A stretch of DNA of 63,389 nucleotides, filler included, from Rhabdomonas costata (lineage: Eukaryota), in the NCBI GenBank assembly GCA_019059605.1. It is 27 parts of 27 records of this genome, joined end to end, with 100 filler letters (N's around TTAATTAATTAA, not from the genome) between each part and the next. Parts side by side here need not be neighbours in the genome. Positions count along the whole stretch, not along the records: positions 42,326 to 44,575 come from JAHMHO010004537.1; 26 more parts are not named here. The stretch is one strand, 5' to 3'. A program made the translations under genes and the position numbers. Numbering within the stretch: position 1 is the first letter of the stretch; every line of letters starts with the position of its first letter. Shown piece after piece: positions 14,144 to 44,689 of the stretch. The notes under the pieces are model-generated. The model was given only the letters and a program-made list of their open reading frames with translations. It searched no databases and had not been told where the DNA came from.

Positions 14144-16237
14144 AGATGCTCTGCGAGAGGAGCTCAGCTCTATTCGAGCTACATTTCATGCAAAGCTGCA
14201 AGAAGAGGTGCGAAGAGGTGAGAAGTGTTCTCATTTCCGATTCGCCAGCCCCGGCAGACAGGCAAGAACTCAATGGGAGGGGGAGGGTCAGGGAAAAAAG
14301 GAAGCGCGCGAATTTGGTGGTTCAGAGGAAAACGGGGAGGGGAGAGAGCATGTTTACAGACGGGACGGGATATGAATAGTGGTATACTGAGGGAGGGGGT
14401 GAGGTGAGAAAAGAAGATGGAGTGGATAAGAATCTGTGGTCACTGCCTTCAGCAACTGTATCGCAGCCGTCGACGAAGCCCCGACGGGCTGAACCATGTT
14501 AGACGTCAAGCGCCTCATCAAACAGACTGGACTCGCCACATCTCCTGAAAGCCGGAGAACCCTCAGGCAACTTGTCAGAGCCTTCTGCCGCGCAATGCCG
14601 AGACCACCTCTTCTTCTTCGTTTCGCATCAGGCTGAATGTGAACTGAAAACCTTGAACGAAGAGCTGGGATCGTGTGCACTCGATGGTTTTCACCGACAC
14701 GTCTTCGTAAGCGGGGATGTCTACGAAGGAACCTGGAGAGGCGGAAAGATGTGCGGCCAGGGAACCTACCACTGCGCCTTTACTGGAGAACGGTCTGCTA
14801 TTCTGGACGTTTTGCCTTCGTTTTTCGCCCGTTGAAAGACAGACAGAAGGAAGGCAAGCGCTTCCCAGAGAGCGGGATGGGTCACAACTCATTCCACTTC
14901 TAAGGACTTCAGCAGACAAATGCCCCCGTGGAGTTCTCCATTTCCTCGATATATCATCGTCATCAACAATGTATTTTCGTTTTTGTATAGTCTCACGAAA
15001 GTCATCAGGAGTTCAGGAGTTCAGGAGTTCAGCAACAAGGACTTCTAAGGACTTCTAAGTTCGAGGTAGGGTTGATTTGAATGTTGAAGTGCCCTGGTCA
15101 CAATGAACTTTGATCTCTGAAGTTTGATCTTGGAACCCCAAAAAAAATTTCTCCATAAATTTGTTTTTGCTGCGTCGGACTTTGAACATTTAATTGAAAT
15201 GACTTTTGAGCACCCCCACAACGAACTTTGAGGTCGGTGTTACCCTGTTCTAGGGCAGCATGATGTTGGGCAATCTTGCTGAGTATGACACTCGCTTCAT
15301 TGGACTTTCACCTTCAAGCCGTTTTGCTCTTCGCTCATTGCCAACAAACGGTCATCAAATTGGTGTTTCGGCTAGTGACTTCCAATATCCTGTATTTTAC
15401 ATTATACTGACCCAGTCACACGAATACCTGCATTTGCGTTGAGAAGACGCCAATAACCGTATTACGGGCATTATTGTCGCCATACCAGAACTTCGCAATG
15501 GAACATCGCAGGTGAAATCTGGTCAGTGATCGACTGACTAGGTCATTCTACCAACCTGGATCAGCAAGAGCAACTGCACATACGACACAGCTTTCTTAAG
15601 CGTGTGGTTGTTTCCGGGTTTCCGCACACCCGCCAGACGGCAGTAAAGAAAAGGAGACCATCTTCAGCGAAACAAACCGCCATATAACAGCAACAGTGAA
15701 AAGCGTAATGCGCAGTCGGTTCTGGCCTGGGTCCATCCAAAAGAGCTATACAAACAAAGGTCACCCCTGTTCCTCTCAACCTCGGCACTCACTTCCATCG
15801 TCTCAAAGCGGGAGCTCTTCACTGCTCCCGCCTTCACAGCTGCCTACACTTGGCTTGTTGTTTCTTGCCTGCAGGTACGAAGGAAGCTGGCTAAATAATC
15901 TCAGGGACGGCGAGGGTGTGCAAACGTTAGTGGGAGTAAGCGAGAAGTTGTACTCCGGTCAGTGGAGCAAGGGTTTGCGCCATGGCACGGGCACCCTGCA
16001 GCGGAAAAATGGTACGTCCTCCCACGGGTTGTTCCTCGTTGTCAGAGCAACCATTTTTTCAACCACGTTCACTTTCTCACAATTTTGTGTAGGAGATTGC
16101 TACGAAGGGGAATGGATAAGAGGTCTTCCTTGTGGCCAAGGCACAATGTCGCTTGCAAATGGTGACGTATACTCCGGTGAGTTTGCCGATGGGGAGTTTG
16201 ACGGCCACGGAACTATGACCTACGCGAACGGCGACAG
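14144..16237 (+). CDS. MORN-repeat protein, partial; exons 14144-14207, 14632-14792, 15875-16011, 16093-16237
   Basis: Repeats GDVYEGTWRGGKMCGQGTY, RYEGSWLNNLRDGEG, LYSGQWSKGLRHGTG, GDCYEGEWIRGLPCGQG, GDVYSGEFADGEFDGHG. All introns GT-AG with consistent phase. Confidence 0.93.
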
Positions 16238-16275
16238 GTCCTTTTGCAATGTGTTTGGTTGAACTGTTTGCTTGT

Positions 16276-42207: not shown

Positions 42208-42407
42208 TTGTTCCACCCCCCCCACNNNNNNNNNNNNNNNNNNNNNNNNNNNNNNNNNNNNNNNNNNNNTTAATTAATTAANNNNNNNNNNNNNNNNNNN
42301 NNNNNNNNNNNNNNNNNNNNNNNNNGGGGTTGTGGTTCCTTCCCTGATTTTGCTCCTCTCCCCGCTCCCCCCTTGTTATCTCCGCCCTCGTGGGCCCCTC
42401 CTGGCAG

Positions 42408-44189
42408 ATGCGGTGAAGGCCCGAGAACAGTCTGAGGTGGAGCGTTTCCGCCGCCGCCGCGGCCTCACCGTGTTTGGGGCCGACCTGTGCCGCCCCGTGC
42501 AGGCCCTCTCCGAGCTGAGTTGCTTGCCAGAGACCCTCCTGGAAGGGCTGCGGGCGGATCTGCGAGAGCCCGAGCCAGTGCAGTGCCAGGTCTGGCCCAG
42601 CGCGCTGAGTGGCAGGGACGTCGTGGCGATTGGCTGCTCCGGGTATGCCATTCCCTTCCTTTCCCTTCCCTTCTTTGCATTGCTTAAGTGGCACACACTT
42701 GTCAGTGACAGCCCCATGACCGCACAAAACGGCTGTGGGGGCTCACGCTACGGTACCCGACCCAGCCCGGCACCAATTATCCGTGTTGAATTGACTTTGG
42801 AGCTTCCTTTGTTCTTAGTGTTCTTTTGGTTATGGGGGACAGAGAGGACTGAAAGCAGAAAGCACGGAATCGAAAGATGCTTGAAAAACGATGTCCCGCG
42901 CATACAGCGCATGTGTGCTGGCACGGAGATCCCCTTAATCCTGCTATGAGCCGCAGGGCTCCGGCTCACCACACAACAGGACACAACAGGACAGGACAGG
43001 CCTGCGCCGCAGGTCCCAGGCACATACAGCGCGAACATGCCAACATAATACAAACAGAAAACACACCTGGCCATCGGCAAATGTAGCGGCTGCCGAAAAG
43101 ACACACCCACAACCCATGAAAGGATACCTAGCGGCCACCAGGTGCTCCCACATTCTCACCCCAACTTAAAGAACAAAACGAGGAGGAAGCCTTGTCCCAT
43201 CATGGCACTCAACTCCCGATGCTCTGTTTTGGCGGTGCCGTCTGTGCTATACACGCATATTGGGATGGAGAAACATTCGCTCTTTTCACAGGCCTGGTGT
43301 GGTACTGGCGTACACCGTGCCTGCGATCCAGCACATCAACGCGCAGCCCCGGCTGCGGCCTGGGGATGGCCCTGTAGTGCTGGTGCTTTGCCCAACCCGG
43401 GAGAGAGCGGAGTTCGCACAGGAAGTGTTCGTGAGGCTAGGTCAGCCCACAGGGGTCAAGAACACCACCCTCACCGGTGGGATTGCCAAGGGCCCCCAGA
43501 TCCGCAACCTTCAGAAAGGTGTGTCTGCACGCGCGCTGGAACGACTTCCGCCTCTTCGTCTTTTTCTTCTTCTTCTTCTTCTTCTTCTTCTTCTTCTTCT
43601 TCTCTGCCACCTTCATCATCGAGTTCCAATTTACAAGAGACCCTGCTGTGTGAATTTGGGTGCTTGCGACATGGTTGATGGCGCAGCAGGGCAGGTTTTT
43701 CACCAAACCCCAGAAATTGTGAATCAGCTTTTCTAGCAAGTTAAGTTTCAGCGATCTTGGATCTGGGCCTGGGCCCCGCCAATAGAAAGTGGCAGGGAGA
43801 TTGGTTGCGCAGTTACGTGGTTGGTGCTGTTGAAAAACGATCCGCTCTCAACGGGCGTAATCCTTAGTGGATGTCAGAGGCAGGGTGCCGTTAGAATTCC
43901 CGGCAAGGCAAAGGCGATCTCTGATGGGCGCTGTGGCTCAGGAGTGGAGACGGTGATCGCGACCCCAGGCCGCCTCACGGAGCTGCTGGCTAGCGGGTGC
44001 ACTAGCCTGTTGCGGGTCACCTTGCTGGTGATCGACGAGGCGGAGCAGATGCAGCCCCTGGGGTACTCCGAGCACCTGCGGCAGCTGCTGCGGTGCACCC
44101 GGCCTGACCGCCAGACCCTGGTCTTCGCCGGAATGCTAACGCCATATGTGCAGGAGCTCTGCGGGCTGTGCTGCAGCAACCTGGTGCAG
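42408..44189 (+). CDS. DDX5/DDX17/Dbp2-like DEAD-box protein with degenerate catalytic motifs, RecA1 domain; exons 42408-42642, 43292-43518, 43942-44189
   Basis: Dbp2 signatures QCQVWP.ALSGRDVVAI, HINAQPRLRPGDGPVVLVLCPTRE, GGIAKGPQIRNLQKGVETVIATPGRL, RVTLLVIDEAE, RPDRQTL. GT-AG introns in phase. Confidence 0.92.
43566..43602. repeat. (CTT)n microsatellite inside an intron
   Basis: Directly visible; explains the poly-S, poly-L and poly-K ORFs. Confidence 0.95.
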
Positions 44190-44689
44190 GTCTGCTTCTG
44201 AGTGTGAATGTGTGAGTGTGGTTTTTTCATGGGTATGGATGCTTAGATTGGTAACCATCACGACAAAAGCTCAGCAAATGGAAGTCGCTCGGGGCATCTG
44301 TCCCAACAGGAGAGAGCCGCAACGGGGAATGGAGGAAGGAAGGTAACCTCAGATAATCTGAGGAGCACTCAATTTGCTCAGGATTTTTCTTTTAATTCGG
44401 TATTTGGGAATCGTTTGATGTCGATAATTTTTTATTTAGGTCCACATGCAAACGGTATACAGCAGACAACACGTATGGAACAAGAAAGAGATGAGAAGGC
44501 GGAAGGTACGCAAACGGTTAGAGAGCTCAAACGGCGGGAAAGCATACTCCTGGAAGGTGTAAGGGTTAGAAACAANNNNNNNNNNNNNNNNNNNNNNNNN
44601 NNNNNNNNNNNNNNNNNNNTTAATTAATTAANNNNNNNNNNNNNNNNNNNNNNNNNNNNNNNNNNNNNNNNNNNNGGTGGGTGTTCATT

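Follow-up and report, generated by a model that had tools for sequence, protein, structure and literature searches.

We detected, on one contig of the Rhabdomonas costata genome assembly GCA_019059605.1, three internal exons of a gene that we assign, with a probability of roughly 0.68, to a small conserved family of pseudohelicases derived from the DDX5/Dbp2 RNA helicases and lacking the residues that use ATP. The contig (JAHMHO010004537.1) occupies positions 42326-44575 of the stretch analysed here, the window, which is 63389 bases long and strings together 27 contigs (2249-2266 bp each), broadly from longest to shortest, by means of 26 N44-TTAATTAATTAA-N44 linkers. Neighbouring pieces of the window adjoin artificially, and the helicase-like gene is confined to this one contig. 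Three sequences, namely the window protein, a full-length R. costata protein (P0125) and a fragment from a second genome contig (P0124), form one clade in which the ATP motifs have been replaced, and P0125 is expressed as a full-length mRNA.

ATP motifs and gene model

In the spliced product, motif I reads AIGCSG/PGVVLAY (the slash marks the splice junction, which divides a Gly codon), with Val-Val replacing the Lys-Thr of Walker A. The Gln of the Q motif is retained (PEPVQ), with the conserved Thr changed to Glu, Ile to Val, and an upstream conserved Phe to Leu. Among the RNA-contact motifs Ia, GG and Ib, the sole change is Leu to Arg in PTRERA. The window protein has Pfam DEAD homology but lacks the G-K-T, D-E-A-D and S-A-T of an active DEAD-box helicase.

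An earlier note on this DNA had described a Dbp2/DDX5-like protein with every ATPase motif altered. Scripted splicing from the sequence reproduced exactly its junction of 42642 to 43292, which turns motif I into GCSG/PGVV, and likewise gave DEAE for motif II, AGM for motif III and PTRERA for motif Ia. The GG doublet, TPGRL, GDGP and RPDRQTL, described there as intact, are unchanged in the spliced translation. The statement on every ATPase motif can apply only to the first RecA domain (RecA1), motifs IV-VI of the second (RecA2) lying off the contig, and the Gln of the Q motif is kept.

The frame, the splice sites and the bias in G+C at third codon positions (GC3), also claimed to be intact, proved to be so. 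The 710 spliced nucleotides, read in phase 2, give 236 residues with no stops, and the other two frames contain 9 and 4. All introns are GT-AG, with junctions CTCCGG/gtatgc...ttttcacag/GCCTGG, AGAAAG/gtgtgt...ggctcag/GAGTGG and GTGCAG/gtctgc by coordinate splicing. The G+C content at codon positions 1, 2 and 3 of the spliced exons is 0.71, 0.48 and 0.82, and that of the introns 0.53 and 0.51. By chance, a frame open over 236 codons came up 68 times in 20000 shuffles that kept the exon composition, and once in 20000 random sequences drawn with that of the introns. The features of the contig are as follows.

42326..44575, no strand: whole 2250-bp contig holding the finding; the runs of N end at 42325 and restart at 44576
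42326..42407, + strand: 3' end of the upstream intron, pyrimidine-rich, ending ...ctggcag; upstream exons are cut off by the contig end
42408..42642, + strand: exon A, phase 2, covering the N-terminal flank and the Q-motif region and running into motif I, whose first half (...AIGCSG) it encodes
42569..42583, + strand: Q-motif equivalent PEPVQ (alignment columns 33, 54-58)
42643..43291, + strand: intron 1, GT...AG, 649 nt, G+C 0.53
43292..43518, + strand: exon B, encoding the remainder of motif I (PGVVLAY) together with GDGP, motif Ia (PTRERA) and the GG doublet
43299..43304, + strand: Val-Val codons at the Walker A Lys and Thr positions (columns 81 and 82, K>V and T>V)
43392..43409, + strand: motif Ia PTRERA (PTRELA in the canonical rows of the alignment)
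43476-43481, + strand: GG doublet
43519..43941, + strand: intron 2, GT...AG, 423 nt, G+C 0.51
43942..44189, + strand: exon C, with motif Ib (TPGRL), motif II (DEAE), RPDRQTL and the motif III position (AGM)
43962-43976, + strand: TPGRL (motif Ib)
44034..44045, + strand: motif II, DEAE replacing DEAD (column 188, D>E)
44127..44135, + strand: AGM where the SAT of motif III belongs (columns 216-218)
44190..44575, + strand: probable start of intron 3 (gtctgc...), G+C 0.45, with a read-through stop at 44199-44201

The part of the read-through open reading frame (ORF) that lies upstream of exon A is unlike the relatives, and the tblastn match of P0125 begins at 42398. No further exon was detected between 44190 and the contig end, and tblastn of P0125, P0124 and a Euglena longa helicase (P0004) against the whole window gave no additional exon on the other contigs. 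Intron 2 contains a 17-copy TCT/CTT microsatellite at 43553-43603.

Relatives sharing the loss

Single exons or P0125 served as queries against a collection of 5.8 billion proteins. An exhaustive phmmer search with exon B returned 1218 proteins at E<=0.001, the best eight of which (P0123-P0130) were inspected. P0125, the uncharacterised 715-residue protein RCo033770 of Rhabdomonas costata (EukProt EP00906), matched exon B at 86 bits and 59% identity; according to PMC8219788, the RCo proteins are transcriptome-based predictions. P0124, a 144-residue ORF fragment from a 186-kb contig of the European Nucleotide Archive, matched at 101 bits and 64% identity in the same search, and its identity to the window protein over exon B is 61-64%. 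The motifs of the three sequences compare as follows.

Motif I: window GCSGPGVV; P0125 GVTGVPRV; P0124 S-V-V at the Gly-Lys-Thr positions
Motif Ib: window TPGRL; P0125 TPIRL; P0124 outside its coverage
Motif II: window DEAE; P0125 EDVD; P0124 outside its coverage
Motif III: window AGM; P0125 ANT; P0124 outside its coverage

The Walker A Lys and Thr are missing in 3/3 clade members, the pair being given as V-V in the window protein, R-V in P0125 and S-V in P0124. When P0125 is aligned to Dbp2, the positions of motifs V and VI read LLSSYSVLQTTEL and SRLWLLVR, and its Pfam Helicase_C match reaches 14.9 bits, under the cut-off of 23.5. In P0124, both limits of the homologous stretch fall on the ends of exon B or at most two codons away, and its flanks resemble translated intron ends. 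Judged from the P0124 protein alone, the intron positions would be conserved between the window gene and the genome encoding P0124.

All 301 collected proteins were scanned for loss of GKT, and no further true case was found among them; the other GKT-less flags were eight exon fragments that start after motif I and P0255, which reads GSAKT. Among longer proteins, exon C gave 132 matches (the best at about 50% identity), and of the nine inspected eight were canonical and one, P0011, carried DEVD. Exon A gave 282 candidates among longer proteins, none at E<=10. A search of the ESM Atlas with the P0125 core returned generic DEAD-box clusters only.

Some candidates were set aside. P0123 owes its top phmmer score to the sum of two exon copies in tandem, both canonical in appearance; the region of motif I is absent from it, and it is not a member. 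P0011 (232 residues, Joint Genome Institute metagenome; DEVD, normal SAT, 52% identity to exon C) is 56% identical to P0204 vs 44% to P0125 and is likewise not a member. The Cys before PTRE was considered as a unique signature and dropped, many canonical helicases sharing it. Of the collected proteins, P0004 (Euglena longa, EukProt) is a canonical DDX5-like helicase (GSGKT, DEAD, SAT) with a long C-terminal extension of two similar segments and a weak Pfam RRM_1 match (23.2 bits), an architecture unusual for the subfamily.

Phylogenetic position and descent

Canonical rows for the tree were chosen from the 301 proteins as those of at least 380 residues with G.GK[TS] and DEAD (185), from which 90 eukaryote-type and 6 RhlE-type rows were taken by id range. 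After thinning (identity under 72%, no fewer than 200 columns filled), 39 rows remained, the three candidates among them. In the resulting tree (IQ-TREE, LG+C20 with posterior mean site frequencies, 39 rows, 236 columns), the window protein, P0125 and P0124 form a clade with 100/100 support. The loss of GKT is common to relatives, a point on which the earlier note had wanted evidence. In a quick tree built without the motif I, Ia, II and III columns, the clade was kept at a Shimodaira-Hasegawa approximate likelihood ratio of 99. P0038, labelled bacterial by its id range only, was placed among the eukaryote-type rows.

Further features of the alignment link the window protein to P0125. Both depart in common from the canonical consensus at 36/235 positions (0.153), compared with a mean of 0.037 shared departures and a maximum of 18/235 (0.077) among the 33 canonical rows. 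They are 48% identical over 236 residues with no gaps, and share the derived strings ELSCLPE, LCPTRE, GVKN and LVFA. By tblastn over the three exons, P0125 scores higher than canonical P0004 on each (97/83/74 vs 73/74/45 bits), including exon A, where the scores are 73.6 and 45.4 bits.

As for the origin of the family, exons B and C match Pfam DEAD (PF00270) at 27.3 and 35.2 bits, respectively, against a cut-off of 26. In a PDB search, the solved structures closest to exon B were DDX17 (68 bits), Dbp2 (66) and DDX5 (66), with DDX42 next at 36, and those closest to exon C were Dbp2 (55 bits), DDX17 and DDX5, all at 54-55 bits. These matches bear out the label Dbp2/DDX5-like that the gene had been given. 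P0125 matched Dbp2 at 251 bits and DDX17 at 228, followed by DDX46 at 133. In the tree, which sampled other eukaryote subfamilies only sparsely as outgroups, the clade falls within the DDX5/Dbp2-like rows, and a 100/99 split sets these apart from two bacterial rows. Taken at the sequence level, these results indicate that the contig gene derives from the DDX5/Dbp2 branch of the DEAD-box RNA helicases.

Pattern of conservation and loss

The window protein carries the canonical consensus residue in 29/46 columns that are at least 95% conserved, in 36/58 conserved at 80-95%, in 33/67 conserved at 50-80% and in 16/64 variable columns. Because the match to the consensus declines from conserved to variable columns, the sequence appears to have been shaped by purifying selection. 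Losses are concentrated in the ATP motifs: with columns conserved at 90% or more across the 33 canonical rows, and the ATP-motif set chosen by us from general motif definitions, the window protein keeps 7/18 ATP-motif columns vs 42/55 other conserved columns (Fisher p=0.0077) and P0125 keeps 5/18 vs 38/55 (Fisher p=0.0027). Of the 13 columns of motifs Ia, GG and Ib, 12 are kept in the window protein and 11 in P0125. The residues at the dead positions differ from one member to the other (V-V vs R-V for window and P0125, DEAE vs EDVD, AGM vs ANT), as would be expected from relaxed constraint after an old loss.

Predicted fold

An AlphaFold2 model of P0125, built from a 34-sequence alignment, gave a predicted local distance difference test score (pLDDT) above 90 for most of residues 190-610. 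Its best Foldseek matches were Dbp2 (8arp) and RNA-bound DDX17 (6uv4), the latter with a template-modelling score of 0.83 normalized by target. The model agrees with a two-RecA fold retained in P0125. The tails of this protein, residues 1-181 and 621-715, are predicted to be disordered, and the C-terminal one has many Ser, Arg and Lys residues and a short basic run that, read by eye, resembles a nuclear-localisation signal.

Alternative explanations

The family could be real and the window copy still a dead or unexpressed duplicate or fragment, lying in a repeat-rich, badly assembled genome and too young to have acquired stops. This would suit a copy on an unplaced 2250-bp contig with no closely matching protein in the collection, and an identity of 61-64% to P0124 over exon B implies at least two copies or lineages. 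We consider it rather improbable in view of the three open exons, the six intact splice-site dinucleotides and the absence of gaps against P0125. Third positions have not relaxed to background either, GC3 being 0.82 vs about 0.52 in the introns, and by a rough estimate, not a computed one, a terminal branch of 0.9 changes per site could hardly have been mostly neutral without leaving stops or indels.

That an ordinary active DEAD-box helicase has been misread, its GSGKT, DEAD and SAT hidden by another junction, a micro-exon, RNA editing or assembly errors, we find hardly credible. Motif I does cross a junction predicted from sequence, and euglenids have nonconventional introns, according to PMC8219788. 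Against this, the V-V codons, DEAE and AGM all lie within exons, away from the junctions. The earlier note had named a micro-exon or alternative junction restoring GSGKT as what would overturn its reading, and no GK[TS] could be obtained: none occurs in any plus-strand frame of contig 42326-44575, none of 318 alternative in-frame donor (GT/GC) and acceptor (AG) pairs flanking intron 1 yields GK[TS] or a junctional K[TS]L, and the five K[TS] dipeptides inside intron 1 all stand in unrelated contexts. In addition, the spliced product is collinear, with no gaps, with the transcript-derived P0125, which lacks the same motifs, and P0124 independently shows V-V. We also regard it as very improbable that nucleotide is still bound or hydrolysed through an unconventional site, in a divergent active nucleoside triphosphatase or a nucleotide-sensing switch. 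Such a site could draw on the P-loop glycines (G-x-x-G-x-G), the D-E-A of motif II and the Q-motif Gln that the window protein keeps, but the residues at the Lys and Thr positions vary among the window protein, P0125 and P0124, which looks like drift and reveals no new conserved site. P0125 moreover lacks the Q-motif Gln, DEAD (EDVD) and the arginines of motif VI, and DEAD-box proteins cannot hydrolyse ATP without the Lys of Walker A.

Several points weigh against the reading of the contig as part of a conserved pseudohelicase family. The clade consists of three known sequences, one of them a 77-residue piece, and the search with P0125 gave no new member (of 8000 proteins scored, 30 reached E<=1e-5, and the 29 others all carry Helicase_C). 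A metagenome scan with exon B found 15 loci of at most 55% identity; nine were inspected, and GSGKT was present in 7/7 that cover motif I. Nothing close to the window's own exons was found in the 5.8-billion-protein collection, so that the gene was met with there neither as an annotated protein nor as an ORF derived from a transcript. Of the gene, 236 codons are visible; it is truncated at either end by the limits of an unplaced contig of 2250 bp, and RecA2 and its true neighbours lie beyond them. The canonical rows of the tree were selected by requiring G.GK[TS] and DEAD, the Fisher test depends on the motif definitions chosen, as described above, and the suggestion of purifying selection comes from the intact frame, GC3 and column pattern. 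The AlphaFold2 model leans on canonical helicases in its alignment, so it is not independent. Finally, the clade could owe something to long-branch attraction, with branch lengths of 1.66 for the stem, 0.9 for the window protein and 1.38 for P0125. It is disfavoured because ELSCLPE is shared in the poorly conserved N-terminal flank, and the long-branch warning of the tree tool did not flag the joining of the window protein, P0125 and P0124.

Proposed role and significance

We hypothesize that the members of this pseudohelicase family keep the two-RecA fold and most RNA-contact motifs of RecA1 (Ia, GG, Ib). The window protein, lacking the Lys on which hydrolysis depends in DEAD-box proteins, would be unable to hydrolyse ATP and probably unable to bind it, and hence would carry out no ATP-driven unwinding or clamping of RNA. 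Contact with RNA through RecA1 may persist, and the protein probably serves an RNA-protein complex as a structural subunit or adaptor that needs no ATP, in the manner of Utp25 and MUT-15. The earlier note had suggested an ATPase-dead paralog retained as an RNA clamp or scaffold. DEAD-box clamping of RNA normally requires bound ATP, clamps such as eIF4AIII holding RNA in the ATP-bound closed state, and for this reason we prefer the scaffold to the clamp. The window gene is a candidate paralog of a canonical DDX5/Dbp2 gene.

A bolder version of this proposal is a tentative one, and we hold it to be doubtful. It would have an old, euglenid-wide pseudohelicase family that lost all ATP motifs, kept the RecA1 RNA surface and serves as an RNA-touching scaffold of a nuclear ribonucleoprotein (RNP), perhaps in spliced-leader trans-splicing or in the handling of nonconventional introns, with the window gene functional. 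P0125 ends in a disordered, basic, Ser/Arg-rich tail, which is cited here beside the nuclear-RNP part of the proposal.

DDX5/Dbp2 proteins are among the most conserved RNA helicases, and their non-enzymatic roles are hard to separate from the ATPase cycle. A paralog kept after loss of all ATP motifs would be a natural separation-of-function mutant, whose conserved surfaces hint at roles of the DDX5 fold that are free of ATP. It would also add, beside Utp25 and MUT-15, a third independently derived DEAD-box pseudohelicase, and one that is still recognisable by sequence. Automatic annotation would call such genes 'ATP-dependent RNA helicase', probably wrongly here. DEAD-box-like pseudohelicases are already known, but no description of a lineage-specific, DDX5/Dbp2-derived family of this kind in euglenids was found in the literature searched, which did not cover the supplementary tables of the R. 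costata paper, where the transcript might be listed.

Other observations in the window

The first piece of the window has a G+C content of 0.369, and the remaining pieces range from 0.45 to 0.58. On another contig, an open frame at 15600-16259 (+ strand) encodes MORN repeats (Pfam PF02493, 99.6 bits, 4 stretches) and has no relation to the helicase-like gene. Rfam gave no matches at gathering scores over the whole window.

Comparison with known systems

P0125, as modelled, shares the domain order and fold of Dbp2, DDX5 and DDX17, and the window protein retains HINAQP, GDGP, PTRE.A, GG, GPQIR, TPGRL and RPDRQTL. The window protein differs from them by substitutions at the Lys and Thr of Walker A, at the final Asp of DEAD, at SAT and in the residues that follow motif II. 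Motifs V and VI have also been substituted in P0125, where Helicase_C stays under its cut-off. By its sequence, the window protein evidently descends from the Dbp2/DDX5 family but lacks the catalytic features that define it. RCo033770 (P0125), the sole full-length clade member, resembles the window protein in its degenerate motifs I, II and III; it has lost two residues that the window protein retains, the Gln of the Q motif and the Gly in TPGRL (TPIRL), and it has long disordered N- and C-terminal tails, the corresponding parts of the window gene lying outside the contig.

Utp25 is described, in PMC9539457, as a pseudohelicase resembling DEAD-box proteins, one whose helicase motifs are dispensable and which is a structural component of the small-subunit processome. 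The likeness to Utp25/Def lies in a DEAD-box-like protein with two RecA domains, the structural RNP role being that of Utp25. The origins are separate: the Utp25 family was not among the Pfam matches of the three exons and P0125, which comprised DEAD, AAA_22 (weak) and Helicase_C (weak), and the window protein is still clearly DDX5/Dbp2-like by sequence.

MUT-15 of the C. elegans CPUG complex has, according to a preprint (bioRxiv 10.64898/2026.09.04.749402), a RecA1-RecA2 arrangement in which DEAD has become NNAE, no detectable ATPase activity and a role in scaffolding enzymes. It shares with the present family a DEAD-box-like architecture with degenerate ATP motifs. MUT-15 belongs to a lineage of no relation, and it took a structure search to recognise it, whereas the family reported here can still be recognised by sequence as derived from DDX5.

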